From the IMG/VR virus record IMGVR_UViG_3300042514_001858, positions 90,168 through 154,167 of that record: a stretch of DNA of 64,000 nt, one strand, 5' to 3'. Origin of the DNA: a virus. The notes under the pieces are model-generated. The model did not search any database, was not told the origin of the DNA, and saw only the letters and a list, made by a program, of their open reading frames with translations. This document shows, in pieces, positions 5,984 to 63,756 of the stretch. The position numbers and the translations under genes are program-made. The first letter of the stretch is position 1. Each line of letters starts with the position of its first letter.

Positions 5984-6068
5984 AATTTTTCAATGATATT
6001 TCCATAGTGTTTATCAGGAGCATGAAAGCTATTTATTCACTACTCTCATCATTTAGTTAAATAATAAC

Positions 6069-6305
6069 ATGAACCAACCTTTTGTCAACGATAAAAATGA
6101 AATCGCCAACATTTATCAACAAATGTTGAATGAGGACATGACTGCTGGGGGCGTGTATGGGGGGGATGTTGCTGGTCATGCTGGTATTGAAAACACCGAT
6201 TGGTTTGCTCCAGGAGATGCTAGGAATCCTTATGGGATGGGTGTCACCACCAGAAGAGGTAAATTGAAAAATAAAAAACGCAGGAAGAAAATTAAAAAGA
6301 ATTAA
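6069..6305 (+). CDS. Small late hypothetical protein with a basic C-terminus
   Basis: TAAATA at 6058-6063, 5 nt before ATG; leader EIANIYQQMLNE. Confidence 0.7.
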   Translation: MNQPFVNDKNEIANIYQQMLNEDMTAGGVYGGDVAGHAGIENTDWFAPGDARNPYGMGVTTRRGKLKNKKRRKKIKKN

Positions 6306-7218
6306 TTCTCTTTCTCGCTACTTCACAATATTCGGAATTTAAATCAAATCCAATATAATTCATACCTAATTGTTTGGCAACTGCTCCTGTTGTTCCTGAA
6401 CCCATGAAGAAGTCCAATACGATACCATTTTCAGGGCATCCACTCTTTAACATACGTTCTACCAATTCTTCAGGAAATGTGGCTGTGTGAACGGACTTGT
6501 TGGATTTGGTATTAATCTTCCACACTGCTCTCATGGAACGTCCTCCTCGCTTACGCATTGCGTCCAGAATCCTTCTCTTCGTATCACTTGGGTTCTGTGC
6601 CTTCTGAGACTCATAATCCTTTGTAGCCTCTCCTGTATACACTTCATCAGGATTGGAAGAATTGGCAAATGGTTCAATTTGTTGTTTGAAATAATACGAT
6701 TTGCTTTTCACGAACATGAATACTGATTCAAAATCAACCACAAAACGATCTGTGACGCTCTGGGGGAGGGCATTTCCTTTATGCCATACGATATTATTTC
6801 TCAAAATCCATCCTCTATTCTGCATCTCGATGGCAAAACGGAAAGGAATTAATGCCAATTGTTTTGGTTTTCTCCATCCTCCCAATTTCTCTTTGGGTTT
6901 TTCATTAAATTTGAATGATTCTTTTTGAAGCTCATCCTTATTTTTCCAAACACCTTTACCACTTCCAAGATAGGTATCCCCTAAGTTCACAAAAACAACA
7001 CCATCATCTCGTAGAACACGATAAACTTCATCGTAGTAATCACACAATCCATTGACAAACTCTTCAGGTGTCTCAGCCAATCCAAATTCATTTTCATCAT
7101 CTGTGTATTGACGAAGGTTGTAATAGGGAGGTGATGTCAGGCTGCAATGGATCGATTTGTCAGGCAATTCCTTCAATCCAGCCATTGCGTCAATGTTTTT
7201 GATGTAATTCACGTTCAT
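6292..7218 (-). CDS. DNA N4-C/N6-A methyltransferase (beta class)
   Basis: TSPPY catalytic motif N-terminal; HTATFP and DFFMGSGTT SAM-binding motif C-terminal. Confidence 0.92.
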   Translation of the reverse strand: MNVNYIKNIDAMAGLKELPDKSIHCSLTSPPYYNLRQYTDDENEFGLAETPEEFVNGLCDYYDEVYRVLRDDGVVFVNLGDTYLGSGKGVWKNKDELQKESFKFNEKPKEKLGGWRKPKQLALIPFRFAIEMQNRGWILRNNIVWHKGNALPQSVTDRFVVDFESVFMFVKSKSYYFKQQIEPFANSSNPDEVYTGEATKDYESQKAQNPSDTKRRILDAMRKRGGRSMRAVWKINTKSNKSVHTATFPEELVERMLKSGCPENGIVLDFFMGSGTTGAVAKQLGMNYIGFDLNSEYCEVARKRINSF

Positions 7219-7224
7219 GTTTGG

Positions 7225-7252
7225 ACAGTAGCACAGATTTTTGGGATGTCAA
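7225..7252 (-). promoter_or_regulatory. Sigma70-type early promoter of the methyltransferase gene
   Basis: TTGACA-N13-TGC-TACTGT, ending 6 nt before ATG 7218. Confidence 0.7.
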
Positions 7253-7319
7253 ACGGATGTTTTTTAATTTTCTGGCGATTAAATTTAACTAAATTTCTTT
7301 ATTATATTGTACATCTATT

Positions 7320-8033: not shown

Positions 8034-8527
8034 GTAGGATTTCATTTCAAAACAAACAGATCATCGATATTGATGAAGTGTTTAAGGAAACCAATGAACA
8101 TTTCTATTATTTGTTGGAAAATCTTGGATTGACAGCAACTTTCGATTTCTCTAAAAGAAATAACAAAAAGCTATACACCCATCAATTTATCAAGACATTC
8201 ACAGAATTTCTAAAATATCTCAACGGTGATTTTGTATTTTTCTCCAACACATTAACAAAGGATAAGTTCCGTAATCAGCTTTTGGCTAAAATCCACCGAA
8301 TTTTCAAAATTAATATCGTGGGAAAAAATTACACATTTGAGCAATTGGAAAGCTATCTTGAATGTAGACACGCTGAAGTAATTTCCGAATTTGAATCGGT
8401 TTTTCAAAATAGAAAAACACCTTCATTTCGAAAAATTTCTAAATATCTGGAAAAAGAAGGTCTGACTTTTCTCAATGAGCAATATTTTCAAGAAGTTCTT
8501 AATAAGATGACTATTTTGATTAAATAA
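8030..8527 (+). CDS. Hypothetical protein
   Basis: 165-aa ORF whose GTG start overlaps the upstream stop (GTGA). Confidence 0.7.
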   Translation: MSRISFQNKQIIDIDEVFKETNEHFYYLLENLGLTATFDFSKRNNKKLYTHQFIKTFTEFLKYLNGDFVFFSNTLTKDKFRNQLLAKIHRIFKINIVGKNYTFEQLESYLECRHAEVISEFESVFQNRKTPSFRKISKYLEKEGLTFLNEQYFQEVLNKMTILIK

Positions 8528-8531
8528 TGCT

Positions 8532-8996
8532 ATGAGTAAATTTTTGAAACTTATTGAAGAACATGATCCAGCTACTAAGCGTAGAATGGTTGATTCTTCC
8601 AAAGCTAAAAAAAGCAAATTTTTAGAAATTCTGGAACAATATGATCCAGCTAATGAACAAAAAAGAGAAGATGCTTTCAAAGCTAAAATGCTTTTACATG
8701 AAAAGAAAAGACGATTCAAAAAGAAAAAATACGCTGAAGAGGATGAATCTATCAATGCTACAACAGGTACGTATGAAGTCGATAAAGAAGTCGAAGGATT
8801 GGCAGGTAAAGCTTCTGGTGGTTTGAAAGGTCTTGCAGGTAAATTGTTTGGCACTTCTGCACAAAAAGCAAAATCAGCAGTGAAAGAAAGACAAAATCTT
8901 GCCAATCAAGCAGTTGATGCTTATAGAAAAGGTTCCGTAAGAATTAAAAAAGGATTACAATCAGTAAAACAAACCGCAACTGGAAGAACTTATTAA
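8532..8996 (+). CDS. Late hypothetical protein with a duplicated N-terminal leader
   Basis: TAAATA-N5-ATG; SKFLKLIEEHDPA and SKFLEILEQYDPA. Confidence 0.75.
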   Translation: MSKFLKLIEEHDPATKRRMVDSSKAKKSKFLEILEQYDPANEQKREDAFKAKMLLHEKKRRFKKKKYAEEDESINATTGTYEVDKEVEGLAGKASGGLKGLAGKLFGTSAQKAKSAVKERQNLANQAVDAYRKGSVRIKKGLQSVKQTATGRTY

Positions 8997-8997
8997 T

Positions 8998-9408
8998 ATG
9001 AAATCAAAAACATTACAATTAATTGAAAAATATGTTCGTCTTCTTGAACAAGACGAACAAGATCCCAATGCTGGTATGGAGCAAGCACCTCCTCAAGAAG
9101 GGCAACCAGCACCTGAAGCACCAGCGGAAGAAGCTAATCCTGTTCCTCTCACTTCCATAGCAGAAATTAATTACATTAAACATGTTGTGATGGCATTGCT
9201 ATACGCAACAACAACTAATGTATCGGAAGCAGATAAATCAAATCTGAAGGAACTTGAAGTTGCTTTACAGGATGATGATGAAGCTCAAGAATTGTTACAA
9301 CAGACTGGAAAGACTGGTAAAGAATTTTATGAAGAAGAAATCCTACCAATTATTATGGGAATCCAGAATGAAAAAGAAGAAGCACAGAATTTAAACTCAA
9401 TTAGCTAA
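8998..9408 (+). CDS. Acidic hypothetical protein, candidate internal head protein
   Basis: Leader MKSKTLQLIEKYVRLLEQ; P/E/Q-rich linker. Confidence 0.7.
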   Translation: MKSKTLQLIEKYVRLLEQDEQDPNAGMEQAPPQEGQPAPEAPAEEANPVPLTSIAEINYIKHVVMALLYATTTNVSEADKSNLKELEVALQDDDEAQELLQQTGKTGKEFYEEEILPIIMGIQNEKEEAQNLNSIS

Positions 9409-9416
9409 ATAATATT

Positions 9417-9878
9417 ATGAAATTCAAAGGTGAAGAAAATAAAGTGATTTGGGAATCTTTCCGTGGTAAAGTTATGAACGAAAGATTTGATGACGAGATG
9501 GATGATGACTTCGGTGATGCCATGGAGTATGATGGTTTCGGTGACGACGATGAATTCGGTGGTGATGATGACTTTGGAGATGATGACTTCGGTGACGAAG
9601 GTGATTTTGATCAACCTGAAGCACAAGGAATGGTCATGGAATTTGACCCAATTAGTCCTGTTGAGAAGCACGAAGTTAATGAAGTTCTTCTTTCAGAGTT
9701 GAAAAAACTCGCTGAATATGCTGATCGTTTGTATGAAATGAGAAACGATTGTGAATTTGAAGATTGGATGGTTTCAGCGATTACTATTTCTTCGACTTAT
9801 GTTTCCGATGTTTGGCATCGCCTTGATGCTAAAGCTGATTTTGCAAACACTGGATTTGAACAATCCGATGATTATTAA
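9417..9878 (+). CDS. Acidic (D/G/F-rich) late protein
   Basis: TAAATA-N5-ATG; (D)DDFGD repeats; helical C-terminal domain. Confidence 0.75.
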   Translation: MKFKGEENKVIWESFRGKVMNERFDDEMDDDFGDAMEYDGFGDDDEFGGDDDFGDDDFGDEGDFDQPEAQGMVMEFDPISPVEKHEVNEVLLSELKKLAEYADRLYEMRNDCEFEDWMVSAITISSTYVSDVWHRLDAKADFANTGFEQSDDY

Positions 9879-10900: not shown

Positions 10901-10936
10901 GGTATTGACATCCACAAATTATTCATAAATATCACT

Positions 10937-11116
10937 ATGAACGTAGAAATCGTAGTAAAAGAGGATGAGAATTTTAAAATTGTAGACGGTGTAGAAGAAG
11001 CACCGAAAGCTGTTGAGCAACCAATCAAAGTAGAAACACCACAAAAACCACAACCAACCTTGGAAAATCCAAAAGGTCATTCATGGTTTGATGGCACTTC
11101 TTGGGGGACAAAGTGA
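10937..11116 (+). CDS. 59-aa late protein (not in the ORF track)
   Basis: TAAATA 10926-10931, 5 nt before ATG; MNVEIVVKEDENFK...HSWFDGTSWGTK*. Confidence 0.7.
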   Translation: MNVEIVVKEDENFKIVDGVEEAPKAVEQPIKVETPQKPQPTLENPKGHSWFDGTSWGTK

Positions 11117-21866: not shown

Positions 21867-22111
21867 ATCACATTCTTTTTGATAAGAAAGGGGAGATGAC
21901 AAATGAATTGTTGGAAGAGTTCTCTCCTTATATGGTGACTCGTTACTTGAGTTTCTATGATAAAGATCTGTTGAATTATGCTAATGAGACAGTGAACAGA
22001 TACTCACAGATATTCGATACGGATGAAGAAGCATTTCGATTCTTTGAAAATGTGATTCCCAAATTGAAACGAAAAAATATCAAATATATATCCAAAAAAA
22101 GAGAAAAATGA
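21851..22111 (+). CDS. gp62: Clamp-loader small subunit-like
   Basis: FSPYMVTRYLS...YANETVN...FRFFENVIPKLKRK resembles the gp62 core. Confidence 0.55.
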   Translation: MFNTINHILFDKKGEMTNELLEEFSPYMVTRYLSFYDKDLLNYANETVNRYSQIFDTDEEAFRFFENVIPKLKRKNIKYISKKREK

Positions 22112-24782: not shown

Positions 24783-24845
24783 ATTTGTTTATTTAATAAT
24801 AAAAAAATATTCATTGACAAATAAATAATACCAATAAATATATTT

Positions 24846-41275: not shown

Positions 41276-41277
41276 TA

Positions 41278-44416: not shown

Positions 44417-44448
44417 GAAACCCGATGCACCGAAGAGCATCGGGTTTC
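44417..44448 (+). terminator. Stem-loop after gp23
   Basis: GAAACCCGATGC-N8-GCATCGGGTTTC, 12-bp stem. Confidence 0.75.
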
Positions 44449-44473
44449 CTCGTTTATACGTTAAATAATATCA

Positions 44474-44998: not shown

Positions 44999-45026
44999 AA
45001 TTTGATCAATTTTGCTAAATAATAAT

Positions 45027-47876: not shown

Positions 47877-49582
47877 CCCTCGCAGGATTTACAGTTCATA
47901 ATCGATCTAGCCAGATTTTGTGCTGGATTAGAGCTTCTTTGATAATACAACCCTTTAATACCCTGCTCCCAAGCAAAAATCATCAGTTCATTGACTTCTT
48001 TTAATTTGGTGTTTGGGGGAATTGTGATGTTTAGAGACTGACCCTGATCGATATATTTTTGTCTTTGTGCTGCCTGAATAATGATTTCCTTTTGGGAGAT
48101 TTCACCAAACGTCTTGAACACATCTTTTTCATCTTGTGAGAGAAAATCTAAATGCTGAACACTGCCACCGTGAGTAAGAATTGATTTCCATGTGACGGAA
48201 TCATTCTTACCTTTACATTGAAGCAAATTCATAAGGTATGGATTCTTATATGTGAAGTTTCCTTTGGCAAGAGCTTTTACAAAATAACAACTGTTCAAAG
48301 GTTCAATCGATGGTGATGTTTGACCAAGGATAAAGCTACTAGATGTTGTTGGTGCTACTGCGAGAGTGGTAACATTTCTGCGACCATATCCTTCGAGAAG
48401 TGGTGCTTCCCCAAAAATCTTCGCCAATTCTTCTGTTGCATGATCTGCCTTTGTTCTGATGTGACTCCAGATATCAATATTCAAAAACTTAGCGTCCATA
48501 GACTCCCATGGAATCATCTTCGACTGAAGAAGAGAGTGCCACCCAAGAACCCCAACACCAAGAGCGCGTTGGTTGATTGCAAACTTACGAGGTGCTTCCA
48601 TAAACTCTAACCCCTTTGTTTTATTGATGAATTCTGTCATCACAGCATCCAAGAAATATACCAACGTTTCAACAGCATCTGTATCTTTCCAATTTTCCCA
48701 CTCTTCAAGATTTAGAGATGACAAATCACATACGAACGATTCGTCTTCAGAATTACTCAGAGCGATTTCGTTACAAAGATTTTGGTGATGGATTTTTAAT
48801 CCTTTATCTTTATAAACTTGGGGTGCATTGTTGTTGAGCGTATCTGTGAATGAAATGTATGGGTATCCACTCTCTGCTCTCTTCTTGATTACCAGTGACC
48901 AGATTTTTCTAGCTTGTTTATCGCCATCGATCATCTTTTGCATCCATTCATCAGAAACACATACGCCGATAGACATATCCTGAATAGCGTTACCCTCAGA
49001 TTTAATTTTTAAGAATTCCTCGATATCTGGGTGATCGATTGGAAGATAAGCTGCCATACTACCACGACGAACGTTTCCTTGAGAAACTACTCCCATAAGC
49101 TTATCAAATAATTCAAGACTATAATCCAATTTATGAATTGGTGTTCCTGCGAGATAATTGAGTCTTTCCGATATTTCCATGAAATGAACTGCTCCAGTAG
49201 ATGATCCACCAGAAGAAATTGGTTCTCCTCTTCCTCTCAATTCTCCAAAATATGCAGATGTTCCACCTCCCATTTTTGTCATGATTGCAATCTCTGAAGA
49301 CTTTCTAGCGATTCCCGCCATCGTATCGGGAATATAGCTCCCAAAGCATGAAATTGGCAATCCTCTTTCACGACCAAAGTTGCTCCAGATCGGTGATGCT
49401 AGAGAATATGCTCCCATATGTAAGTAAGCCTCGAATTTGTCAGCAAACCCATCAAGCCCTAAAAGTTTTTCTGCTGCTTCTGCAATGTCTCTCATCCGTT
49501 GTTCTGGAGTTTCCCCTTCCAACAGATATCCTCTTTCTAGAAATTTTCTAGAGTCTTCGTTTAACCATTTTATATTACTCAT
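47873..49582 (-). CDS. nrdA: Class Ia ribonucleotide reductase alpha subunit
   Basis: PISCF, GGGTS, SQGNVRRG, NLCNEI, APTTSSS, DQGQS, LYY, C-terminal CKSC. Confidence 0.95.
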   Translation of the reverse strand: MSNIKWLNEDSRKFLERGYLLEGETPEQRMRDIAEAAEKLLGLDGFADKFEAYLHMGAYSLASPIWSNFGRERGLPISCFGSYIPDTMAGIARKSSEIAIMTKMGGGTSAYFGELRGRGEPISSGGSSTGAVHFMEISERLNYLAGTPIHKLDYSLELFDKLMGVVSQGNVRRGSMAAYLPIDHPDIEEFLKIKSEGNAIQDMSIGVCVSDEWMQKMIDGDKQARKIWSLVIKKRAESGYPYISFTDTLNNNAPQVYKDKGLKIHHQNLCNEIALSNSEDESFVCDLSSLNLEEWENWKDTDAVETLVYFLDAVMTEFINKTKGLEFMEAPRKFAINQRALGVGVLGWHSLLQSKMIPWESMDAKFLNIDIWSHIRTKADHATEELAKIFGEAPLLEGYGRRNVTTLAVAPTTSSSFILGQTSPSIEPLNSCYFVKALAKGNFTYKNPYLMNLLQCKGKNDSVTWKSILTHGGSVQHLDFLSQDEKDVFKTFGEISQKEIIIQAAQRQKYIDQGQSLNITIPPNTKLKEVNELMIFAWEQGIKGLYYQRSSNPAQNLARSIMNCKSCEG

Positions 49583-49593
49583 GTTTATATATT

Positions 49594-50568
49594 TTAAAAT
49601 AACTCGTCTTCGTCAAATGCTTGATTTTTCTTGGAATATTCTGTGGGCTTACCGTGGAAAAAATCAACCATACTGTTACCAAGCAATTGCTCATCAAACC
49701 ACATTGTATCACCAATTAGCGTTTCGTCAATATCAAAAGCTTTGGAAAATCCAATCTGGATCAACGACTCGTTGATTCGACTCTTGATCAACTCTTTTAG
49801 TAATGGTGCTGATAATCCTTCTTCATCGATACCATTAACCATCCAGTCAATAATTTTGGACTCTGCGTTGAAAGCTTCTTGTGATTCTTGGATGATTTTC
49901 TCTTCGAATTCTTCGTCAAAAAGTTCTGGACATTCTTCTCTGATCGTATTGATGATCTTGATACCTACTAAGGCATGTATAAGTTCTTCGTTTCGTGTGT
50001 AGCAAACTTGTTGATTGGTATCTTTCAGAACATTTTTCTTGGTGTTGAACCAATTGATAACGTAAAATTGTGAGAACAGAGAAACGTTTTCAACAAACAA
50101 AGTGAACAACACCAAGGCATATAGATATTGTTTTTTTGAATCTTTGTAGAATCGGTGTGTATATTTTTTCAAATACTTGACCCTACCTTGAATCCAATCC
50201 AACTTTAGATTTTCCTCAAACACATCATTCAGTTCCAATACATCCAATAGACGTTCATATGCATTGTTATGGATCACCTCAACATTTGCCATAACGAACC
50301 CCAAATCCTGTAAAGATGGATGTGGTAAATTGTCTCCAAGCTTGCTCCAGAAAGTTTTTACAGCTACTTCTATCTGTCCAATAGCTGATAGTGTTCGGAT
50401 GATGATCTCTCGCTCTTGGTCGTTTAAAACAGTTTTAAATTGATGTAGATCGCTCTTAAATGAAAACTCTTTGTCTGTCCAGAAACCATTATGCATAGCT
50501 TCAATAAACTGTTCTGTCCATGGGTATTTGTTTGGTTTTCTACTAATTTGTTCGTCAAAAATGCTCAT
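49594..50568 (-). CDS. nrdB: Ribonucleotide reductase beta subunit
   Basis: FWTDKE, EVIHNNAY, VENVSLFSQF, EELIH, DFF. Confidence 0.95.
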   Translation of the reverse strand: MSIFDEQISRKPNKYPWTEQFIEAMHNGFWTDKEFSFKSDLHQFKTVLNDQEREIIIRTLSAIGQIEVAVKTFWSKLGDNLPHPSLQDLGFVMANVEVIHNNAYERLLDVLELNDVFEENLKLDWIQGRVKYLKKYTHRFYKDSKKQYLYALVLFTLFVENVSLFSQFYVINWFNTKKNVLKDTNQQVCYTRNEELIHALVGIKIINTIREECPELFDEEFEEKIIQESQEAFNAESKIIDWMVNGIDEEGLSAPLLKELIKSRINESLIQIGFSKAFDIDETLIGDTMWFDEQLLGNSMVDFFHGKPTEYSKKNQAFDEDELF

Positions 50569-50671: not shown

Positions 50672-51310
50672 TTAGAGAATTTCATCGATGATCCCATAAT
50701 CAAGACATTCTTGAGCATCCAACCAAATATCTCTCTTCATAAGATCATCCAATTTTTTCATTGGAACTTTGGTGTGTTTTTTATAAAAATCTTTGAGAAC
50801 TTTCATCAATTTAGTGCATGTGGCGATTTCATCCTCCATTTCTGAGAACTTACCATAGACACCAGAACTTAATTGGTGAATGAGGAAATGAGCATGTTGT
50901 CCCATATATCTTTTATGACCACTTAAACTAATCAGAGTTCCAGCGGATGCGGTATTACCATCGACATATGTGTAGACTTTAGATTTTAATCTACGGATTG
51001 TATCGACAGTAGAAAATGCTGCAAAAATAACACCTCCAAAGGTATTAAGATGGAGATGGATGATAGGTTCATAATTATCATCAAAGATTTTAATACTTTG
51101 TAATTTACAATCCAATTCGAGTAAAACACGGTTTAATTCCAAAACAGATCCTTCATCAATATCAGCATAGAATAAAATTTTATTATTAATAACTCGAATA
51201 CCACTATTAACGGTTGCTTGTTCTTCATTTGCAGATGTTATGATGATATTTGGTATATTTGAGTTATTTTCCTCTTTTTCCTCCTCGTTTCGATATCCCC
51301 ACCTTTTCAT
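50672..51310 (-). CDS. ClpP-like serine protease
   Basis: LNTFGG, GNTASAGT, FLIHQ, RDIWLDAQECLDYGIIDEI. Confidence 0.85.
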   Translation of the reverse strand: MKRWGYRNEEEKEENNSNIPNIIITSANEEQATVNSGIRVINNKILFYADIDEGSVLELNRVLLELDCKLQSIKIFDDNYEPIIHLHLNTFGGVIFAAFSTVDTIRRLKSKVYTYVDGNTASAGTLISLSGHKRYMGQHAHFLIHQLSSGVYGKFSEMEDEIATCTKLMKVLKDFYKKHTKVPMKKLDDLMKRDIWLDAQECLDYGIIDEIL

Positions 51311-51358
51311 ATAACATTATTTAACATTGAAATCTATGTTATCAAATTAAATAATATT

Positions 51359-51676
51359 ATGGATAAATTTTTACAACAAATCTATACTGATTTGATTTTG
51401 GAATATCAAAGTGGTTTCAACCCACCCCAAAGAGTGCCAAAGCAAGAAGTTCCTCAAGAAGCGGGAACTAAATTGTCTTACAATAAACAAATAATTGGAA
51501 TAGCACCACCGATGGTGACTTCCCACGTTTATGGTGAGCAAGAAGAAGAATTGGGAGGAATTTTAAAAATTATCCAAGATGTTGAAGATGAATATATCGG
51601 AGATTCCCCAATTAATAATGCTGTCAGATTAGCACTTGGAACATTGAGAGAAAAATTGGATAAATCGAATAAGTAA
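51359..51676 (+). CDS. Late hypothetical protein
   Basis: TAAATA-N5-ATG; leader FLQQIYTDLILE. Confidence 0.7.
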   Translation: MDKFLQQIYTDLILEYQSGFNPPQRVPKQEVPQEAGTKLSYNKQIIGIAPPMVTSHVYGEQEEELGGILKIIQDVEDEYIGDSPINNAVRLALGTLREKLDKSNK

Positions 51677-51860: not shown

Positions 51861-52436
51861 TTAAAATCCGCAATATTTACGAAATTCCTCCATGGGGAAT
51901 GCTGGTCCTGGATCAACTTTGCGATCAGGTGCAATGTCCTCGTGTCCTAAAATAGCATCTAGAGTATAACGTTTGGTTAGAACATTGCTCAATTCTTTAC
52001 CAGTTGCAATTTGTTCTGAAGTATATTGTTCCCATTCACAAATTGGACCACCATTCTTATGTTTGGCTCTAAGAGGTGGTAATTTAGAATAGCGTCGAAT
52101 TAAATTCGTAGAATCCCCGGCATTAGCATATTCTATACCAATCGAACAGGAATTTAAGTTTTCATAGGTTTTTCCAGCATGAGTCCATTTTGATTTACCA
52201 GCATGTCCACATGTAAGATTGCAAGGACGACATTGATATAATGTGCCGTCTCTATCAATTACGAAATGTGCTGATGCCCCTTTAGCATCTGGTGTTTTCC
52301 AAAAATTAATTGAGGACATTCCAGTTGCACCACTTGTAAAATGTTGGATAAGAAATCTACGAACGCTCATTTTACTCCCACCTTCCAATGGAACTCTTTT
52401 TGCAGTGTCTACCCAATGATCTTCCAAAACTTTCAT
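51861..52436 (-). CDS. N-acetylmuramoyl-L-alanine amidase (endolysin)
   Basis: IQHFT, SAHFVIDRDG, HAG, NSCSIGIE, GHEDIAPDRKVDPG; late promoter. Confidence 0.92.
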   Translation of the reverse strand: MKVLEDHWVDTAKRVPLEGGSKMSVRRFLIQHFTSGATGMSSINFWKTPDAKGASAHFVIDRDGTLYQCRPCNLTCGHAGKSKWTHAGKTYENLNSCSIGIEYANAGDSTNLIRRYSKLPPLRAKHKNGGPICEWEQYTSEQIATGKELSNVLTKRYTLDAILGHEDIAPDRKVDPGPAFPMEEFRKYCGF

Positions 52437-52444
52437 ATTATTAT

Positions 52445-52849
52445 TTAGTGTCCGTAATTTTTAATTCTTTTTTTCCATATAGGATAAGAACCAGCAACCA
52501 CAGCAGAATAGATAGTCCATCTCATGGTGAATCCAACTCCAGCTTCTTTCATCAATTCGAGAAACATCCAATTTGACGTTTTCCAATCATATTCAGTATT
52601 AAATGGTGAAAATAACCAATCATGGACTAGAGCGGCAGGGAAAGCAGGTCCATAAGGTCCGATAATAGCCCATGAAAATTTGGGTGCTGATATACCATCA
52701 GTAATAAATCCTTTGGGAACGGTAATTAATTTACCTTTGTAATAACAACGAAAATCTGCCAAAAGACGAAATTTTCTCGTTCCTTTGACAATACCCAAAT
52801 CTTCCAATTTAATGGTATCGGGAAAAACATTTTTATTTAATTCACTCAT
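52445..52849 (-). CDS. DUF1353-like protein
   Basis: VPKGFITDGISAP, AALVHDWLF. Confidence 0.8.
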   Translation of the reverse strand: MSELNKNVFPDTIKLEDLGIVKGTRKFRLLADFRCYYKGKLITVPKGFITDGISAPKFSWAIIGPYGPAFPAALVHDWLFSPFNTEYDWKTSNWMFLELMKEAGVGFTMRWTIYSAVVAGSYPIWKKRIKNYGH

Positions 52850-52864
52850 ATTATTATTTAGTAC

Positions 52865-52892
52865 TTGACAAATGAAAAAAATATGCTAAATT
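52865..52892 (+). promoter_or_regulatory. Sigma70-type promoter
   Basis: TTGACA-N13-TGC-TAAATT, 6 nt before ATG 52899. Confidence 0.7.
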
Positions 52893-52898
52893 GGAAAC

Positions 52899-53279
52899 AT
52901 GTTGAAAATATCTTGTATATTATTGTTTATGATGTTATGTGGTAATTCTGAAGAATACACTGCTAGAGTCACTTATTATTGGTCAGGAAATGGTGGTCAA
53001 GTTGGATCACAAACTTCTACTGGTAAAAAAGCGATCTGTGGAAAAACCGTAGCAGTTGATCCAAAAATTATTCCTTATGGTAGTAAAGTAATTATTCCTC
53101 AAATGGGTATAACTGCTACAGCAATTGATACTGGTAGTGCAGTGAAAGCTAGAACTGCTTCTAAAAAAATTGGTAAAAATAATATTGTGATCGATGTTTT
53201 TTGTGCTTCTAAAAAAATCGCGCAACAACGAATCAAGAATTTTCCAATGTTTATGAAAATTATTGTGGAGAAAAAATAA
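52899..53279 (+). CDS. Secreted 3D-domain (MltA-like) cell-wall protein
   Basis: Hydrophobic N-terminus; VAVDPKIIPYGS, AIDTG, IDVF. Confidence 0.85.
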   Translation: MLKISCILLFMMLCGNSEEYTARVTYYWSGNGGQVGSQTSTGKKAICGKTVAVDPKIIPYGSKVIIPQMGITATAIDTGSAVKARTASKKIGKNNIVIDVFCASKKIAQQRIKNFPMFMKIIVEKK

Positions 53280-54661: not shown

Positions 54662-54727
54662 TATGCGTTGTATGTTTTAAAGATAAAAAATCATTGATTT
54701 CTCGAATATTCGGATAAATAATTTAGT

Positions 54728-54925
54728 ATGATCAAAGTATTGACAAATAATAGTGTTAAATTGTGCTGCAAAGGAAAAAGTTGCCCAGTAGTTACAGAAC
54801 TCACAGACGGCATGGTAGAAATTACTGATGATTTTGGTAACAAAATTATTGTGAGAAAAGAAGAAGCACTCCTGATTTCCGATGGTGTAAAAACGATTGA
54901 TAATCAAAAACTTATTCTAGGATGA
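54728..54925 (+). CDS. Small Cys-containing hypothetical protein
   Basis: LCCKGKSCP; TAAATA 7 nt upstream. Confidence 0.65.
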   Translation: MIKVLTNNSVKLCCKGKSCPVVTELTDGMVEITDDFGNKIIVRKEEALLISDGVKTIDNQKLILG

Positions 54926-55203
54926 GTCTTTGGTTTCAATCTTTTGTATTGATTGGTGCTTGTCTGATCCTGAAATACGGATCAATTCTAAATCCTATTC
55001 GAGATCGTTTGATTAAAATGAAATTCTTTGAGAAATTGTTTAAGTGTTGCATGTGTCTTGGATTTTGGGTGGGATGTTTCTTTGGAATGTTTTGGACAGG
55101 CACACCATTCTTGATTCCCCTATGGGGATTCTACGCATCTTCCATTTGTTGGTTTGCTGATTATTTCACCATGGTGATTGACAAATATTTGGGGAATGAT
55201 TAA
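54922..55203 (+). CDS. Small membrane protein (DUF1360-like)
   Basis: LFKCCMCLGFWVG, hydrophobic segments. Confidence 0.6.
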   Translation: MSLWFQSFVLIGACLILKYGSILNPIRDRLIKMKFFEKLFKCCMCLGFWVGCFFGMFWTGTPFLIPLWGFYASSICWFADYFTMVIDKYLGND

Positions 55204-55211
55204 ATAATAGA

Positions 55212-55826
55212 ATGCAGTCATTCTATAAATTTTTTTGGGAAGCATTCTCAGACATTGGTAAATTATCACCTGAACAATTAAAAATCAGTAGAAAACTAAC
55301 ACCTGAAGATTCTGGAAAATTTAAAAAAGTTGATTGGCGATCATTTTATAAAATCATCAATGCTTACATGGAATCAGATACTAAACGTGCTGACCCTGAA
55401 CACAAAGAACATGAATGGTTTAAAGATATTAAAAATAACATCACCATTTACAAACCAGAAGAATACGCAGAGATGGAATGTTTTATCGGACCAAACAATA
55501 CCAGCGGATATTGCATCAAAAAGGGTGATGAATTGGTTTCGGTTTTTTCTGGCATACAATCTTCGGGGGATGCGGCAGTAAAAAGTGCTATTAAAAATGG
55601 TGTTAGACGTTTAGATTGTTTTGCGGAACAAGATGGTGATGGTAATATCATACCAAAAAAATTATTCAAACTCTACAGTCGAAATGGTTTTGTTATTGAC
55701 AAAGATAAAAACGATGATACAATGCCTTATCCAGTGTTCAATGGTATTTCCTATGGTGTTGACGACGATGGCAACATCGACAGAAATTCCAAAACAGTGG
55801 TTGTTTACATGAAATTAGCACGATGA
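55212..55826 (+). CDS. Late protein with a possible GNAT-like domain
   Basis: TAAATA-N5-ATG; leader MQSFYKFFWEA; ELVSVF..., RLDCF, LFKLYSRNGF. Confidence 0.6.
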   Translation: MQSFYKFFWEAFSDIGKLSPEQLKISRKLTPEDSGKFKKVDWRSFYKIINAYMESDTKRADPEHKEHEWFKDIKNNITIYKPEEYAEMECFIGPNNTSGYCIKKGDELVSVFSGIQSSGDAAVKSAIKNGVRRLDCFAEQDGDGNIIPKKLFKLYSRNGFVIDKDKNDDTMPYPVFNGISYGVDDDGNIDRNSKTVVVYMKLAR

Positions 55827-58517: not shown

Positions 58518-58528
58518 TAAATAATACT

Positions 58529-58753
58529 ATGAAAAAATTCCAAGATTTCTTTAATGACTACTTCAAGAAAGTTGAAAAAAAAGATCTTCCTAAACCAGAG
58601 GTTTCCAAAGGAGAAGAAGTAGAACAAGAACATATTGCTCCTTCCAAGAGAAAAACAAAGTTAGGAAAGAAGTTGGCGAAAACGATTGCTAAACAGCATG
58701 TGGAAGAAGATCCAAAATATTACTCCAAGATGGAGAAACAGCACAAAGATTAA
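58529..58753 (+). CDS. DUF5661-like small protein
   Basis: KGEEVEQEH...IAKQHVEEDPKYYSKM; TAAATA-N5-ATG. Confidence 0.7.
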   Translation: MKKFQDFFNDYFKKVEKKDLPKPEVSKGEEVEQEHIAPSKRKTKLGKKLAKTIAKQHVEEDPKYYSKMEKQHKD

Positions 58754-58762: not shown

Positions 58763-60181
58763 TTAATGATTAAATGATTCGGTGTAAGGATCTACCACAA
58801 CTTTTCTTGCGGTTATATCTACTGGTTTTCTGATCATGACATCATCAGTCATAGGTGATTTATTTGTAGATGAATGCATATTGTCTTTTATTTTATTAAT
58901 ACCTCTTCTGAGAAAAGAAAGAGTTTCTGTTCTACTTTTATCAGTCATCCCCGCCAAATATTTCAAAGTGTTGGTATCTAATTTTTCCGTGATCGCCATC
59001 ATATCAGATGGATTGATCTTTGTCAATGCTTGAATTGTATCTTTTCTGGATAATGTTTTATTTTTGATTGAATCTACAATCACTTGTCGTTGTTGTTTGG
59101 TCATCATACTTGGTATGTATCCTCCAACGCTTTCGATGATCTGCTCAACAGCTTTATCCCATTTCTGATCAAAGTCTTCTACGTATTCCTTCATTAACAT
59201 TTCATATTGTTGATCGAATGATTCTTTTTTGATGAAGGGTTCTATATCTTTAAAAATGGTGTAGTGATCTTTACTAACATTTCTTCCATCCATTTTAGAA
59301 CCTTTCAATCTCTTATTGGTATAATCTTCCAATCTATCTTTGGTTCTTTTATTTGGTGCGTATGCTGTTTGATATTTGATATTATCTCCTTTTTTAGTTG
59401 CTATTACTTTATGCTCGTCTCTCGCTTTTTCTTCTTTAGAAAACTTGCCAGCATATAAAAATTTATGCTCAACAATTTTACACCAATCGTCCCACAAAAT
59501 TTGTGACATTGGACTACTATATTCAATATATGATTCTAAATTTTTCCTACCACCTTTGGTCAATTTACCATGCTTATCTCTGGCGGGACTAGCCATATTT
59601 AATCCAGTGACATCATATGATTTGACATTAATACTATCGAAACATCCTAAATCACCACTTATCAGTTGCACTACAAAAGCAGCTTTAGCTTTTGCTAAAC
59701 CTTTTATGGTTGTAACGTAGTCGAAAAGTTCAAAAACATCGTCTATTCTTTTGACAACATTTTCATAAATGGTTTGTCTGTTATCATAAACATCATAAAA
59801 TTGTGATAATCTTTGAGTCGATAATCCAGTTTCTTTATGCTTACCAGTCATTTGATGACCCAGAAACGATGGTGGTTCCACATTTCTATTAACCACTAAT
59901 CGATTCCCCTTTCTCACAACTGCTTTCGTATAAAACCACTCAATAAATTTTGGGAAACCATGTAACACTTCTGCCCAAGGTGTTTGCATAGTATAAAATA
60001 CAAAGGCGAATACCATCGCTAAATTATCTGGATTTGATAATGCGAATGCTTTTATAAGAGGATTGTCATCTTTGAAACCACTGTCTTTGTCATCTCTCTT
60101 TATACCTAAAGGAATAGTGACTTTTGGTTGCCAAATGACACTCTCCATCAATTCCTTATACAATTTATTAAAGCTACGCAT
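58763..60181 (-). CDS. Protein with an HhH DNA-glycosylase-like domain
   Basis: IKGLAKAKAAFVVQL...LGCFDSIN; TAAGTA-N5-ATG; leader MRSFNKLYKELMES. Confidence 0.55.
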   Translation of the reverse strand: MRSFNKLYKELMESVIWQPKVTIPLGIKRDDKDSGFKDDNPLIKAFALSNPDNLAMVFAFVFYTMQTPWAEVLHGFPKFIEWFYTKAVVRKGNRLVVNRNVEPPSFLGHQMTGKHKETGLSTQRLSQFYDVYDNRQTIYENVVKRIDDVFELFDYVTTIKGLAKAKAAFVVQLISGDLGCFDSINVKSYDVTGLNMASPARDKHGKLTKGGRKNLESYIEYSSPMSQILWDDWCKIVEHKFLYAGKFSKEEKARDEHKVIATKKGDNIKYQTAYAPNKRTKDRLEDYTNKRLKGSKMDGRNVSKDHYTIFKDIEPFIKKESFDQQYEMLMKEYVEDFDQKWDKAVEQIIESVGGYIPSMMTKQQRQVIVDSIKNKTLSRKDTIQALTKINPSDMMAITEKLDTNTLKYLAGMTDKSRTETLSFLRRGINKIKDNMHSSTNKSPMTDDVMIRKPVDITARKVVVDPYTESFNH

Positions 60182-60189
60182 TATAATAC

Positions 60190-60663
60190 TTAATATAATT
60201 CGTCCTGAATAGTAGTTAAATACTCCCCATCGATCTCTTCAACCATCTTAGATTCAACCACACTGTCAGGATTGATGATGATAATGGAAAGATTCTCATT
60301 TCTGATATCACCTTCTCCTGTATTTTTGTAGAAAGCAATATCATAATCACCCAAATCTTTTACATAATCATATCCATGATCTGTTCCATCATCAGGTAGT
60401 AACTTGGGATACACTTTATCAATTCTAATAGTTAATTCATAAAGATAATACTTGTCGAATCTCCCTTCGTCATTGATCATATAATCAGCACGAATCAGAG
60501 CTTGTTGCTTAGTTCCCGCATGAGAACCTGAAGTATAGTCGTTCTTATTGGGACGAGCCGAAGAACGATACACTTTAAGATAGTGAGTATTCGAGATATC
60601 TCGTAGCTTACTATTCGGAGATAGCTCTTGGATATCATAGAAAGATTCTAGAAAAGTTCTCAT
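60190..60663 (-). CDS. ADP-ribosyltransferase-like protein
   Basis: VYRSS, HAGTKQQA, YLYELTI, YDIAFYKNTGE, SIIIINP; start moved to ATG 60663 (TAAATA-N5). Confidence 0.45.
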   Translation of the reverse strand: MRTFLESFYDIQELSPNSKLRDISNTHYLKVYRSSARPNKNDYTSGSHAGTKQQALIRADYMINDEGRFDKYYLYELTIRIDKVYPKLLPDDGTDHGYDYVKDLGDYDIAFYKNTGEGDIRNENLSIIIINPDSVVESKMVEEIDGEYLTTIQDELY

Positions 60664-60750
60664 AAAAATATTTAATCTATTGACAGGGGAAGGAAATATT
60701 TCATACCATGGTGGAACATATGGAGAAATATCCATAATGTGATTAATATT

Positions 60751-61395
60751 TTAAGCTCTTAGCTTGTGACCAATGAAATCGAACACTTCCATTTTATCAT
60801 CGTCTATTTCAGTATTAATCATTTCCTGTTTATTAACTCTTAAACCAACCATCTTATCAAATCCATAAGTTCTCCATTTCACATCAGTTTCAAATTTACC
60901 ACCTGAAGATGGATACATATATTGTTTGGCTTCTTCCTTATCAATTTCTTTTAAGTTTCCCTGATTATCTCGAATGACATAAAACGTTACGTTATTCTTA
61001 ATTAGATTAGAATTAAACATGATTAAAGATAATCCTCTCTTAGAAATCCCCACACTACGGGAGAGTCTTTCTCCTACAGTATTACTTGACTGTGCTTCAA
61101 AATCCCCTTCATCACCCCTTTTAGTTAATTGTCTATTAACTTCTTTTTGGTATTCCCCCAATTCTCCAATCGTTTGAGTGATTTTATATAATTGTTGGTG
61201 AGGGAATTGTTTTTCATATTTTCTTGGTGTGGTAACTGCGGTAAAGCTAAAAGGGATTGTGGTGTTTGGTTTCTCTTTATCTGCCTTAATTACAAAGTCC
61301 ATCATACCTTTAATATCCATAGGTATTGATCCTTCTGCAAAACCATATGCCATTTCCATGTAAATATTCTCCAATATGATACGATCTTTGTTCAT
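60751..61395 (-). CDS. Late hypothetical protein
   Basis: Start moved to ATG 61395 (TAAATA-N5); leader KDRIILENIYMEMA. Confidence 0.75.
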   Translation of the reverse strand: MNKDRIILENIYMEMAYGFAEGSIPMDIKGMMDFVIKADKEKPNTTIPFSFTAVTTPRKYEKQFPHQQLYKITQTIGELGEYQKEVNRQLTKRGDEGDFEAQSSNTVGERLSRSVGISKRGLSLIMFNSNLIKNNVTFYVIRDNQGNLKEIDKEEAKQYMYPSSGGKFETDVKWRTYGFDKMVGLRVNKQEMINTEIDDDKMEVFDFIGHKLRA

Positions 61396-61494
61396 GATAA
61401 TATTTAATATAATAAAGTTAAATATTTCTTTTGAAAAAAATTTTTGAGGGGCAACCACCGAAACGATATATTCCAATTATGATTAAATAATAGA

Positions 61495-62349
61495 ATGAAC
61501 CAAGACGAACTTTCCCTACAACAAATCTACCAAGAAATGGCTTTGACCAATCTACAAAAGATTGGAAAGTGGGAAGACAAAAAGAATCGTCATGGTTATG
61601 ATAAAGCATCAATTGGTATCCTATCTTCTCCCGCAGGACTGAAGAAATTGGAAAATACTTTCAATCGCATTGGTAATTGGGATTTTAATTTATATTTCGT
61701 AAAAAAAGCGGGAGCATGGAAAGAAGCAGAAAAAGGTCTAGTGACTCCCGAATTTGTAAAAGAACATCTGGGTCTGGAAGTAGGTAAAGATTTCCCCCAA
61801 CCAGAGAACGACCAAATCACAGTATTCTTCACCAATAATGCAGCAGCAGAAAAAGTCCCTCTGACTCCATGGACAATTGCCCATAGAATTGGACATAGCT
61901 TCGCAGCAACATTTAGGAGAAATAATGATTTAAATTATATTAATAGAAACATATCAAACATCCTAAAAAATCTTTTTGAACAAGCTTACAATATAAACAC
62001 AAGTAATTCCAGAGACTTACGCTATTCATCTGATTATTATGTAAGAGACTTCTTCCAAAAGATCGGTAAGTTCCGTAGCGCAAGAATGGGTAAGCTCGTA
62101 AGACCCGCAGAATTCTATCACGAAGCATTTGCCTATTGGTTACTACATGATGGAGAATTGACTTTCAATGACCCGCCAAAAATTCTACAAGACAGTAACA
62201 AACAAGCATGGGGTAAATCAACAGCACGTAATTACAGATTACAAGATGAAGATGAAGCTTGGGAATATATTAATCAATTCAAATGGGCTTTAGATGAAAT
62301 GTTCAATGTCATGATCGGTAAGCACATGGGAACAATGTCCATTATGTGA
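61495..62349 (+). CDS. Late protein with a variant zincin-like motif
   Basis: TPWTIAHRIGH...EFYHEAFA; leader DELSLQQIYQEMA. Confidence 0.55.
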   Translation: MNQDELSLQQIYQEMALTNLQKIGKWEDKKNRHGYDKASIGILSSPAGLKKLENTFNRIGNWDFNLYFVKKAGAWKEAEKGLVTPEFVKEHLGLEVGKDFPQPENDQITVFFTNNAAAEKVPLTPWTIAHRIGHSFAATFRRNNDLNYINRNISNILKNLFEQAYNINTSNSRDLRYSSDYYVRDFFQKIGKFRSARMGKLVRPAEFYHEAFAYWLLHDGELTFNDPPKILQDSNKQAWGKSTARNYRLQDEDEAWEYINQFKWALDEMFNVMIGKHMGTMSIM

Positions 62350-62361
62350 TTAAATAATAGG

Positions 62362-63756
62362 ATGATATCTTTCCACGAATACTTTTTAATAAGAGAAGCA
62401 AAATTCTCCCAATCAAAAAAGGTAATCCCCATAACAAAATTACCTATGTTCTCTGTTTATCTTTTCAAAGATGATGTAGATAAAGTAGAGAGCATAAATG
62501 AATTGAAAGAAAAAATAACGAACGCTTGCACGGAAGCAAGAAAGATAATCACCAAGATGGGTTTCCCTTCCATGCATTCCAACATATTGATCAAGGATTT
62601 GTCAGAGGAAGTGAATTGGGTATCGGGGGGAGGAGTTGGGGGTTATGCTCATCGCAAAGGAAAATACATGACAGTATCCTTAAATCAAATCAATGATCCA
62701 AATTATCTAATCAAAGTGATAGTCCATGAATGGGCGCACCTATGGATGTTCAACAATTCCGAAGGATTTAAAAGAGCTGTCAGCGAATACTACAATACTC
62801 TATTAAACCAATACAAAACAAATTTCTCCACCGCTCAAAAACAGAAGGAAAAGGAACCATTCAAAAATATTTATAAGTATACTAATTTTGAAAAAACAGA
62901 AGAATTATTGGGCAGTGGTTATAACAGTTTAATTTGGAACGAAGTTGTTAAAGATATGATGTATACAGTCAGAAATATCTATCAAAGTTATGTTTCCAAC
63001 AAGTATGATGAAGACGGTTCCCCATGGAAAATAAATGACCAAGAATTTTTTAAAGTCTGGAGAGACAACTTCAAAAGTAAAACCAGAAAATTAATATTAA
63101 AAATAATTAATGACATGCAAAACAAATCACAATTTTGGCATGTTGATATGGGAATTTATAATAAACAACTTAATTATCTAAGCAATGCCCTGACAAAGTT
63201 ATTTTATGACAATCTAATAAAGAATATAAAACGTTCAGTGGAAGCGGATGAGAGTGATTGGAATTGGGCGAAGGAAGATGGAGAAGATTGGGTATCAGAA
63301 TTTGAATCCATTTCTGATTATCTATTAAGTGAAACAAAACATAACGAGAATTTTATATTCGCTAATGATGATTCTTATACGGAAGTTAGTAATAAATTTG
63401 ATGAATTAGATACTCATAGATTGGGTATTGTTGTCCTTATAATCAATTTCGTATTCAATATCTTTGAAATTACTATAAATCAAAAAAACTTCCCCCAATC
63501 AGGAGATAACCTTGCAGGAAAGGAACAATCTCCATTTAGGGAACAGATGAAAGATCTGGTAAAGTGGGTAGATTCTTATGGAATGTCAAATAATGATGAG
63601 TTATGGGCAACGGGAGTGGAGGAATTTCTCAAGCTCCCTTCAAACCATAAAAAAGCTATATTAAAATTAATGGGAACCCAAGGAGAACGACCTCTACCCA
63701 ATCGGAGATATAAAAAATATATCAAAACGATTGATACCGATGGTCTTACACTTTAA
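62362..63756 (+). CDS. Zincin metallopeptidase-domain protein
   Basis: VGGYA, IVHEWAH, YGMSNNDELWA; leader MISFHEYFLIREA. Confidence 0.7.
   Translation: MISFHEYFLIREAKFSQSKKVIPITKLPMFSVYLFKDDVDKVESINELKEKITNACTEARKIITKMGFPSMHSNILIKDLSEEVNWVSGGGVGGYAHRKGKYMTVSLNQINDPNYLIKVIVHEWAHLWMFNNSEGFKRAVSEYYNTLLNQYKTNFSTAQKQKEKEPFKNIYKYTNFEKTEELLGSGYNSLIWNEVVKDMMYTVRNIYQSYVSNKYDEDGSPWKINDQEFFKVWRDNFKSKTRKLILKIINDMQNKSQFWHVDMGIYNKQLNYLSNALTKLFYDNLIKNIKRSVEADESDWNWAKEDGEDWVSEFESISDYLLSETKHNENFIFANDDSYTEVSNKFDELDTHRLGIVVLIINFVFNIFEITINQKNFPQSGDNLAGKEQSPFREQMKDLVKWVDSYGMSNNDELWATGVEEFLKLPSNHKKAILKLMGTQGERPLPNRRYKKYIKTIDTDGLTL

Follow-up and report, generated by a model that had tools for sequence, protein, structure and literature searches.

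Late transcription in phage T4 proceeds from a compact box, TATAAATA, at positions -13 to -6 (PMC2988020 and passages of PMC1524935), with an AT-rich segment between the box and the start (PMC2988020). In the P23 oligonucleotide the late box is followed by CTCCT and then by the start, and T4 gp55 receives A(-12), which is inserted into a pocket (PMC7892883). A late variant, CTAAATA, is read by a diverged gp55 in the Aeromonas phage Aeh1, according to passages of Nolan et al. 2006 (PMC1524935). In Deinococcus-Thermus, the promoter of leaderless mRNAs without Shine-Dalgarno sites is a -10-type element located some 6-7 bp upstream of the start codon (PMC12340547; PMC4007540). As late-promoter prediction was unsuccessful in a survey of pelagimyophages (PMC7029224), the TAAATA-N5-ATG layout reported here is not described there, and our literature search found no published description of it.

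The window (that is, the whole 64,000-nt stretch analysed here) originates from a divergent, uncultured T4-like phage, represented by a 154-kb IMG/VR contig that is 75% complete (CheckV) and whose capsid protein finds its best cultured matches among cyanophages, at about 33% identity. It encodes a gp55 homologue (Table 1) that is 34% identical to P-HM2 gp55 (tblastn), can be aligned with T4 gp55 and retains the equivalent of Y97; several T4 gp55 pocket residues are replaced in this alignment. Given these replacements and the presence of T or C rather than A at -12, we infer, rather than take as given, that this gp55 recognizes the box.

A TAAATA box at a fixed distance from start codons

An earlier note on this DNA listed 23 sites at which TAAATA lies 5 nt before an ATG. 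All 23 are present (Table 1), and their ATGs open reading frames of 59-464 codons; one additional site, at 45779(-), opens a frame of merely 36 codons within the gene at 45556-46281 and is taken as chance. A histogram of spacings across the window, which the note had proposed, counts 24 sites at spacing 5, where neighbouring spacings have 1-4 each; 100 order-2 Markov simulations averaged 2.1 sites per spacing and never exceeded 6. Since TAAATA occurs 94 times in the window and 94 occurrences are expected, the excess sits in the coupling to ATG and not in the hexamer. The whole 154-kb contig contains 48 such sites. The variants were likewise recovered, with N4 at 37611, N6 at 31314, 35330 and 44474, N7 at 54728, 24782(-) and 51310(-), and TAAGTA-N5 at 60181(-); TAATTA-N5 at 904(-), formerly grouped with them, is real but belongs to a TTGACA-N16 sigma70-type promoter and not to the late class.

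Among the analysed boxes, in which TAAATA is invariant by selection, A occupies -13 in 60% and position -12 is T (44%) or C (33%), and the hexamer is followed by an AT-rich ATAwT (A at -5 in 71%, T at -4 in 90%, A at -3 in 75%, A or T at -2 in 79% and T at -1 in 67%). Upstream of the box nothing is conserved in most copies, there is no conserved -35 element, and no other over-represented late-promoter candidate was found upstream of box genes; structure in the first 30 nt of these genes is no lower than in other genes. The box precedes the genes for the portal, gp13, protease, sheath, tube, gp3, endolysin and tail chaperone, as well as the gene in the scaffold position, and is absent before gp46, gp47, gp55, UvsW, UvsY, helicase, RNR and gp44; only late (virion and lysis) genes thus carry it, and replication genes do not. 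The major capsid gene, whose product is the most abundant late protein, has a leader and is expressed without the box-ATG layout.

Conservation extends to relatives, as 80 related contigs (1.04 Mb) contain 401 TAAATA-N5-ATG sites against a background of about 25, and orthologous starts keep both box and spacing where protein identity falls to 30-50% and the flanking sequence has changed. In these contigs the spacings N6 (75 sites) and N7 (54) are over-represented, whereas N4 (10) is under-represented, as expected if the AUG must lie inside the transcript; start codons at N5 are purine-initial (ATG 381, GTG 12, TTG 3, CTG 2).

Table 1 Putative late boxes, sigma70-type promoters and associated features (positions in the window)
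Position	Strand	Feature	Match
904-937	-	Sigma70-type TTGACA-N16-TAATTA-N5-ATG, glycosyltransferase-like gene	
3733-4173	-	gp55 homologue (late sigma factor), 146 aa	phrog_234 'late sigma transcription factor', E=7e-25
6058-6071	+	Late box N5-ATG, 78-aa gene, first of strand block	
7218-7252	-	Sigma70-type TTGACA-N16-TACTGT-N6-ATG, DNA methyltransferase; early-type leaderless geometry	
8521-8534	+	Late box N5-ATG, 154-aa gene	
9406-9419	+	Late box N5-ATG, 153-aa gene	
10905-10939	+	Composite TTGACA-N15-TAAATA-N5-ATG, 59-aa gene	
24782-24795	-	Late box N7-ATG, family-2 glycosyltransferase, divergent from 24846	
24814-24848	+	Composite TTGACA-N15-TAAATA-N5-ATG, 141-aa gene	
30852-30865	+	Late box N5-ATG, 135-aa gene	
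31302-31316	+	Late box N6-ATG, portal protein gp20	Pfam Portal_T4 7e-92
33811-33822	-	Late box N5-ATG, 224-aa gene	
34116-34147	both	Divergent back-to-back late boxes; ATGs 34116(-) and 34145(+, gp13-like adaptor) 28 nt apart	
35297-35332	+	Composite TTGACA-N15-TAAATA-N6-ATG, 754-aa tail-fibre-like gene	
37601-37613	+	Late box (TATAAATA) N4-ATG, 682-aa gene	
40599-40612	+	Late box N5-ATG, prohead protease gp21; conserved in relatives	phrog_207 5e-53
41501-41514	+	Late box N5-ATG, 145 aa; proteins of relatives begin here too	
41976-41989	+	Late box N5-ATG, 294-aa gene, scaffold (gp22) position, 5' of capsid gene	
42872-42936	+	Major capsid gene: 62-nt leader without box, conserved hairpin at about 42888-42905	
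44417-44476	+	12-bp terminator-like hairpin 3' of capsid gene; 13 nt on, late box N6-ATG (44474)	
45016-45029	+	Late box N5-ATG, 150-aa gene; box retained in relatives to about 30% protein identity	
45516-45558	+	Intrinsic terminator (hairpin and T-run), then directly late box N5-ATG (45556)	
51310-51361	both	Divergent pair, 48 nt apart: N7 box 51310(-), N5 box 51359(+)	
52436-52447	-	Late box N5-ATG, endolysin/amidase	
52849-52860	-	Late box N5-ATG, tail assembly chaperone-like	
52865-52901	+	Sigma70-type TTGACA-N16-TAAATT-N6-ATG, 126-aa gene	
54715-54730	+	Late box N7-ATG, 65-aa ORF	
55178-55214	+	Composite TTGACA-N17-TAAATA-N5-ATG, 204-aa gene	
58518-58531	+	Late box N5-ATG, 74-aa gene	
60181-60192	-	Variant box TAAGTA-N5-ATG, 472-aa gene	
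60663-60674	-	Late box N5-ATG, 157-aa gene	
61395-61406	-	Late box N5-ATG, 214-aa gene	
61484-61497	+	Late box N5-ATG, 284-aa gene	
62351-62364	+	Late box N5-ATG, 464-aa gene	

Promoter classes and transcript architecture

Two further promoter classes, both with sigma70-type -10 hexamers, abut the ATG: TTGACA-N16-TAnnnT-N6-ATG and TTAAAAACTAG-NN-TAnAnT-N6-ATG. Sites of the form TTGACA-N16-18-TAnnnT show a spacing peak at N6 (6 sites), and N6 is found at 10 of the 10 TTAAAAACTAG-NN-TAnAnT sites that have a following ORF. The one-base shift from N5 is expected because the sigma70 hexamer lies at -12 to -7 and the late box ends at -6; the N6 stretch of the TTAAAAACTAG class, being rich in GC, does not qualify as an AU-rich translation signal. 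Genes of more than one temporal class therefore have this layout, leaderlessness is not specific to late genes, and setting promoters against ATGs seems to be a general way of expressing genes that suits the host. A late translational takeover, in which leaderlessness would serve as a device against leadered host mRNA, is consequently not indicated.

Convincing intrinsic terminators are few (about 4 in 154 kb), so transcripts are probably nested and polycistronic, with only the first cistron leaderless. Terminators or terminator-like hairpins stand immediately 5' of three boxes (45556, 44474 and contig position 46252(-)), which leaves no space for another promoter or a leader, and divergent gene pairs, with 28-63 nt between their ATGs, have one box per gene. 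Of 59 promoter-abutted genes, 2 overlap their upstream neighbour, whereas among 101 genes lacking a promoter 55 do so; that unpromoted downstream genes mostly overlap the preceding gene suggests translational coupling. With terminators rare, and given this overlap and the structured capsid leader, the proposal that the mRNAs are often single-gene is not supported.

The observation that the boxes leave no room for a Shine-Dalgarno site was correct, and G enrichment at -5 to -15 is absent from every gene class in the genome. The promoter-abutted genes show two sequence traits of leaderless expression: a -10-type element lies 5-7 nt ahead of the start codon (N5 in the late class, N6 in the sigma70-type classes), and there is no Shine-Dalgarno site. 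Given that no Shine-Dalgarno sites are used anywhere in the phage and that A/U-rich upstream regions are also found at genes without a box, the AU-rich box could additionally aid translation on read-through RNA.

Probable leaderless late mRNAs and competing readings

As TAAATA corresponds to positions -11 to -6 of the T4 late box, a spacing of N5 would place +1 on the A of the ATG. We suggest that TAAATA is probably the core of a gp55-type late promoter and that late mRNAs begin on the start codon (that is, are leaderless). Host RNA polymerase carrying phage gp55 would open the five AT-rich bases after the box and initiate at the A of the ATG, so that the first cistron of the late mRNA would lack a 5' leader (or have one of 0-2 nt in the N6 and N7 variants). 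Translation would then proceed without a Shine-Dalgarno interaction, presumably through 70S or initiator-tRNA-dependent binding to the 5'-terminal AUG, and unpromoted downstream genes, mostly overlapping, would be translated by coupling; the late box and the genome's two other promoter classes all abut start codons. The earlier interpretation is supported as regards a gp55-type late promoter with +1 at or beside the A of the ATG, and unsupported as regards single-gene mRNAs and a late takeover.

The box might also serve twice, as a late promoter in DNA and as an unstructured internal ribosome entry region in read-through RNA, with leaderless and internal forms both translated. Boxed genes follow one another with terminators seldom intervening, 11 boxes supply with their TAA the stop codon of the gene before them (8-nt gap), and the capsid gene is one example of internal initiation that succeeds in this system without a Shine-Dalgarno site. 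However, this scheme postulates a second, not directly supported function, and the exact hexamer is conserved more strongly than an unstructured AU-rich region requires; we regard it as unlikely.

Less probable again is that TAAATAATAwTATG acts only in RNA, as a translation-initiation region (AU-rich, unstructured, and S1-type or Kozak-like) on leadered polycistronic late mRNAs whose true promoters lie elsewhere. The lack of Shine-Dalgarno enrichment fits such a signal, as do the enrichment of AAAA, TAAA, AATA and ATAA upstream of unboxed genes too and the paucity of terminators, by which many boxes are transcribed within read-through RNA. A Kozak-like pattern with A at -3 and -6 has been reported for bacteria poor in Shine-Dalgarno sites, and the A at these positions here resembles it. 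A general signal of this kind would, however, be expected at all starts, and the box is absent from replication and recombination genes and from overlapping, coupled genes. Its confinement to late-function genes, its exact match to the gp55 box core in the register of T4, the terminators directly 5' of three boxes and the failure to find an alternative over-represented late promoter upstream of box genes all favour a promoter, as do the coupling of sigma70-type promoters with GC-rich spacers to ATG at a shift of exactly one base, the avoidance of TTG starts, the depletion of N4 and the enrichment of N6 and N7.

It is highly improbable that the box is a promoter with an untranslated ATG beside it, translation starting further 3' and the initial codons making up a short leader: start codons were assigned from ORFs only and the box, having no in-frame stop, leaves frames open around it, but the ATG is conserved at orthologous positions, alignments with relatives' proteins begin at residues 1-6, no Shine-Dalgarno or other signal lies 3' of the ATG, and ORFs of at least 60 codons follow at 46 of the 48 contig sites.

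Extending the preferred reading of leaderless late mRNAs, we tentatively propose that the whole of gene expression in this clade may be free of Shine-Dalgarno sites and based on 5'-terminal AUGs, with three promoter classes (host-type TTGACA/TAnnnT, TTAAAAACTAG-TAnAnT and the gp55 late box) each fused to ATGs in the register that would set +1 on the A, and the remainder served by overlap-coupled reinitiation. If this is true, T4-like phages that infect streamlined aquatic bacteria, SAR11 myophages among them, would constitute a large natural leaderless-translation system, and the failure of earlier late-promoter prediction in such phages would be accounted for.

Comparison with known systems

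The boxes share with T4 late promoters the core hexamer, its register, the tolerance of A at -13, the AT-rich segment between box and start, the absence of a -35 element, the restriction to late genes and an encoded gp55. Position -12 is A in T4 and T or C here, and T4 uses the gp33 co-activator and the gp45 clamp; gp45 had no match in this 75%-complete contig (searched with Pfam PF09116 and PF02916 and with P-HM2 gp45, the PF02916 control matching nothing anywhere). In agreement with the statement that T4 late mRNAs have leaders, the TAAATA-to-ATG spacing in T4 peaks at 27-28 nt, providing a leader with a ribosome-binding site, in contrast to the 5 nt of this phage; the TAAATA-N5-ATG layout is absent from T4 and from the cyanophage P-HM2. 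The Aeh1 variant, with C before TAAATA, resembles the 33% of boxes here that have C at -12, and the passages of PMC1524935 differ in that they do not mention coupling to start codons.

The same layout is found in a cultured phage that is only distantly related, the Pelagibacter (SAR11) myophage HTVC008M, in which the first 50 kb contain 9 TAAATA-N5-ATG sites over a background of about 1, each coinciding with the start of an annotated CDS. Leaderless genes of Deinococcus-Thermus have the same geometry as the N6 classes of this phage, but these are cellular genes with host sigma-A promoters, whereas in this T4-like virus the main class is a gp55-type box at N5. Among viruses, the Thermus phage phiYS40 produces leaderless middle and late transcripts from host sigma-A-type promoters, and poxvirus late promoters contain TAAATG, are used by the virus's own polymerase and give a poly(A) leader by slippage; in both, transcription starts at or within the start-codon region, and neither is T4-like. 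The layout described here differs from that of T4 in that, in a T4-like phage, the late box is fused to start codons, most likely without a leader.

Coupling of TAAATA to start codons

About two dozen start codons in the window are preceded, at a fixed distance of five bases (N5), by the hexamer TAAATA (hereafter the box). All 23 TAAATA-N5-ATG sites reported in an earlier note are present, each boxed ATG opening a frame of 59–464 codons, as are the N4, N6 and N7 variants and TAAGTA-N5 that it named, and the histogram of box-to-ATG spacing agrees with it, with 24 sites at 5 nt, where order-2 Markov simulations of the window averaged 2.1 per spacing and never exceeded 6. One further match, at 45779(-), lies inside a gene and was counted as due to chance. 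Given that the window total of 94 TAAATA equals expectation, the excess lies wholly in the coupling to ATG. Over the whole contig there are 48 N5 sites, with the extended consensus A(-13), T/C(-12), TAAATA, A T A w T, ATG.

The same arrangement is found in 80 related uncultured contigs (1.04 Mb), which hold 401 sites at spacing 5 against a background of ~25, and both hexamer and spacing are kept ahead of orthologous genes down to 30–50% protein identity while the flanks diverge. In these relatives, N6 (75) and N7 (54) are above background and N4 (10) is below, which fits an AUG that has to lie within the transcript, and the start codons coupled to the box (ATG 381, GTG 12, TTG 3 and CTG 2) fit a purine at +1. 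Orphan TAAATA are somewhat depleted (184 versus ~275 under a simulation model that the motif itself inflates), and the number of orphan TAAATAAT matches expectation (35 versus 35); for both reasons we treat avoidance of orphan boxes as weak. The box at 41501 sits within an open frame (41272–41949) for which 41272 and 41278 are both possible starts; the homologue of the 41512 protein in relatives begins at the position equivalent to 41512, right behind the protease gene, so that the present phage has ~237 extra bases there. Transcript ends were also sought in contig ends (42 complete short related contigs and three 2.3-kb contigs with the capsid gene); these do not pile up on boxed ATGs but are random and intragenic, indicating that the contigs are DNA assemblies and uninformative on transcripts.

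The contig, an IMG/VR virus record, is a single linear sequence of 154,167 bp (34.5% G+C; completeness of 75% according to CheckV), of which the window takes up positions 90168–154167, and is a divergent T4-like phage (see table), with sheath, tube, gp3, terminase and gp44 encoded in the upstream part outside the window. Megablast matched no close cultured phage, the capsid protein shares ~33% identity with cyanophage proteins, and the surrounding uncultured clade is very large, with contigs up to ~200 kb. As clues to the host, no tRNA genes were found in the phage, and its RmlA has only 44–47% identity to GTDB proteins, which come from unrelated phyla. Two genes of the upstream part are of unusual form: a 681-aa dTDP-glucose/GDP-mannose dehydratase-like gene (contig 20580–22625(-)) is interrupted by an intein-like segment (a weak match to Pfam Intein_splicing, under the curated cut-off), and the 946-aa terminase large subunit (contig 42252–45092) is matched by P-HM2 gp17 in two separated pieces.

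Identified genes of the T4-like phage (window coordinates)
Gene	Position	Strand	Support
gp46	934–2724	(-)	
gp47	2721–3755	(-)	
gp55 homologue	3733–4173	(-)	phrog_234, E=7e-25; also aligned to P-HM2 and T4 gp55
UvsW	4166–5584	(-)	
UvsY	5585–5983	(-)	
Portal gp20	31314–33140		Pfam, 7e-92
gp13-like adaptor	34145–35287		
Prohead protease	40610–41275		
Major capsid gp23	42934–44385		Pfam, 2e-84
Ribonucleotide reductase	47873–50568	(-)	

Register of the box, a probable late promoter, and of two promoter classes

The T4 late box TATAAATA spans -13 to -6 (PMC2988020; PMC1524935), and the P23 promoter oligonucleotide of a cryo-EM study has five bases between box and start (PMC7892883); in this register, TAAATA-N5-ATG sets the A of ATG at +1. 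T4 likewise tolerates A at -13 and has an AT-rich stretch between box and start, as the present phage does, and the C at -12 in part of the present boxes recurs in an Aeh1 variant (PMC1524935). The box precedes the genes for portal, adaptor, protease, sheath, tube, gp3, endolysin and tail chaperone and the gene in the scaffold position, and is absent before every recognisable replication or recombination gene. Space around it is tight: the divergent ATGs at 34116(-) and 34145(+) have 28 nt between them and one box each (24782/24846 and 51310/51359 are similar pairs), a hairpin and T-run lead straight into the box of 45556, a strong hairpin behind the capsid gene stops 13 nt ahead of that of 44474, and at contig position 46252(-) only CT separates a 14-bp terminator from the box. 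Such abutting terminators leave the promoter only the box, and a leader only five bases. A late promoter yielding leaderless mRNAs is the best explanation for TAAATA-N5-ATG, and a fairly probable one.

From sequence, we infer that the box would be recognised by the phage's own gp55. This homologue of the T4 late sigma factor is short (146 aa) and largely lacks the C-terminal tail which in T4 bears the clamp-binding motif; the sliding clamp gp45 could not be located in the contig, which is 75% complete. Among the residues of the T4 DNA pocket, the Y97 equivalent is kept, and T99 is changed to N, H95 to F and R57 to N. T4 gp55 flips A(-12) into this pocket (PMC7892883), whereas the present boxes have no A at -12.

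Two further promoter classes abut ATG. The second consists of TTAAAAACTAG-NN-TAnAnT followed by exactly 6 bases, mostly GC-rich, and ATG (10 cases); to our knowledge, the conserved AAAAACTAG immediately 5' of its -10 hexamer has no known counterpart. Cases of the form TTAAAAACTAG-NN-TA(C/T)A(A/C)T occupy the minus strand of an accessory/early block outside the window (contig 142–77052). In the third, ordinary class (TTGACA-N16-18-TAnnnT), the distance to ATG peaks at six. The sigma70 -10 hexamer occupies -12 to -7 and the gp55 box ends at -6, so that N6 and N5, respectively, are expected if each of the three classes has its +1 on the A of ATG. A translation signal, weighed as an alternative to a promoter, offers no reason for this one-base shift (the AU-rich box may additionally act at the RNA level in read-through transcripts), and the GC-rich spacer of the second class is no AU-rich enhancer. 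A Bacteroidota-type promoter (TAnnTTTG), suggested by the frequent TTTG ahead of the box, was rejected, since the TA of that motif is lacking and the -35 elements in use are of the TTGACA type. In leaderless genes of Deinococcus, the -10 motif lies ~6–7 bp before the ORF (PMC12340547). Composite promoters, with TTGACA 15–17 nt 5' of a late TAAATA that is itself 5–6 nt from ATG, occur at 10905–10939, 24814–24848, 35297–35332 and 55178–55214, and their genes may be readable by both host sigma70 and gp55.

Translation mode and gene packing

Leaderlessness does not look like a switch of translation away from host mRNAs in the late phase, as host-type promoters are fused to ATG likewise; promoter–ATG fusion looks like a general expression mode of the phage, presumably one that suits the host, and not a late-only device. 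Shine-Dalgarno sites are used by no gene class (G is depleted at -5 to -15), and upstream regions of genes without a box are A-rich. AGAAAG, as found at the capsid gene, was rejected as a general non-core Shine-Dalgarno site, since of 122 boxless genes only 1 has it. A GIY-YIG/NUMOD3 homing endonuclease gene (28787–29539(-)) is among the very few with a canonical site (GAGGAG, 7 nt ahead of ATG), which hints at an origin in a Shine-Dalgarno-using background.

Only 2 of the 59 same-strand genes with an abutting promoter overlap the upstream gene, versus 55 of the 101 without one (through ATGA and similar overlaps), which suggests translational coupling of the latter; at 11 promoter-abutted genes, the TAA of the box serves as stop codon for the preceding gene. 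The mRNAs were also thought often to carry single genes, but convincing terminators are few, making nested read-through transcripts more likely. Promoter-abutted starts are not significantly enriched at strand switches (23/46 versus 59/160, p = 0.13). Less folded 5' ends can be dismissed: the first 30 nt fold at ~-1 kcal/mol on average in promoter-abutted and other genes alike, and the ranks differ slightly (Mann-Whitney p = 0.013) in the opposite direction, promoter-abutted genes being more structured.

No box precedes the major capsid gene, which instead has a 62-nt leader (42872–42933), in which a hairpin (~42888–42905; AUG-AGGnn-loop-nnCCU-GAA) is followed by AUAGAAAG and ATG. This hairpin is conserved clade-wide with AUG and GAA on its flanks, shows compensatory changes at three of its six pairs (16 sequences), and is a candidate stabiliser, processing site or regulator-binding element.

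Comparison with known phages

In the textbook case of late transcription, that of T4, the late mRNAs have leaders with ribosome-binding sites. In the T4 structural region there is no N5 peak, the TAAATA-to-ATG spacing peaking at 27–28 nt, and cyanophage P-HM2 has a broad distribution of 20–28 nt, whereas in HTVC008M, a cultured SAR11 myophage, the first 50 kb contain nine N5 sites, all at annotated CDS starts. As the layout is shared by this cultured pair (HTVC008M and Pelagibacter HTCC1062), the idea is directly testable. If a large, environmentally abundant T4-like clade fuses the gp55 box to ATG, its virion gene expression would rely on leaderless initiation, the ribosomes of its hosts must be efficient at such initiation, and software for gene calling and promoter prediction that presumes leaders would mis-annotate starts and miss late promoters; a pelagimyophage survey in which late-promoter prediction failed (PMC7029224) would be one example. 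Our search found no literature in which TATAAATA or gp55-type promoters of T4-like phages are connected with leaderless mRNAs, and the present layout combines two known kinds, T4 late promoters and leaderless mRNAs, in a new form.
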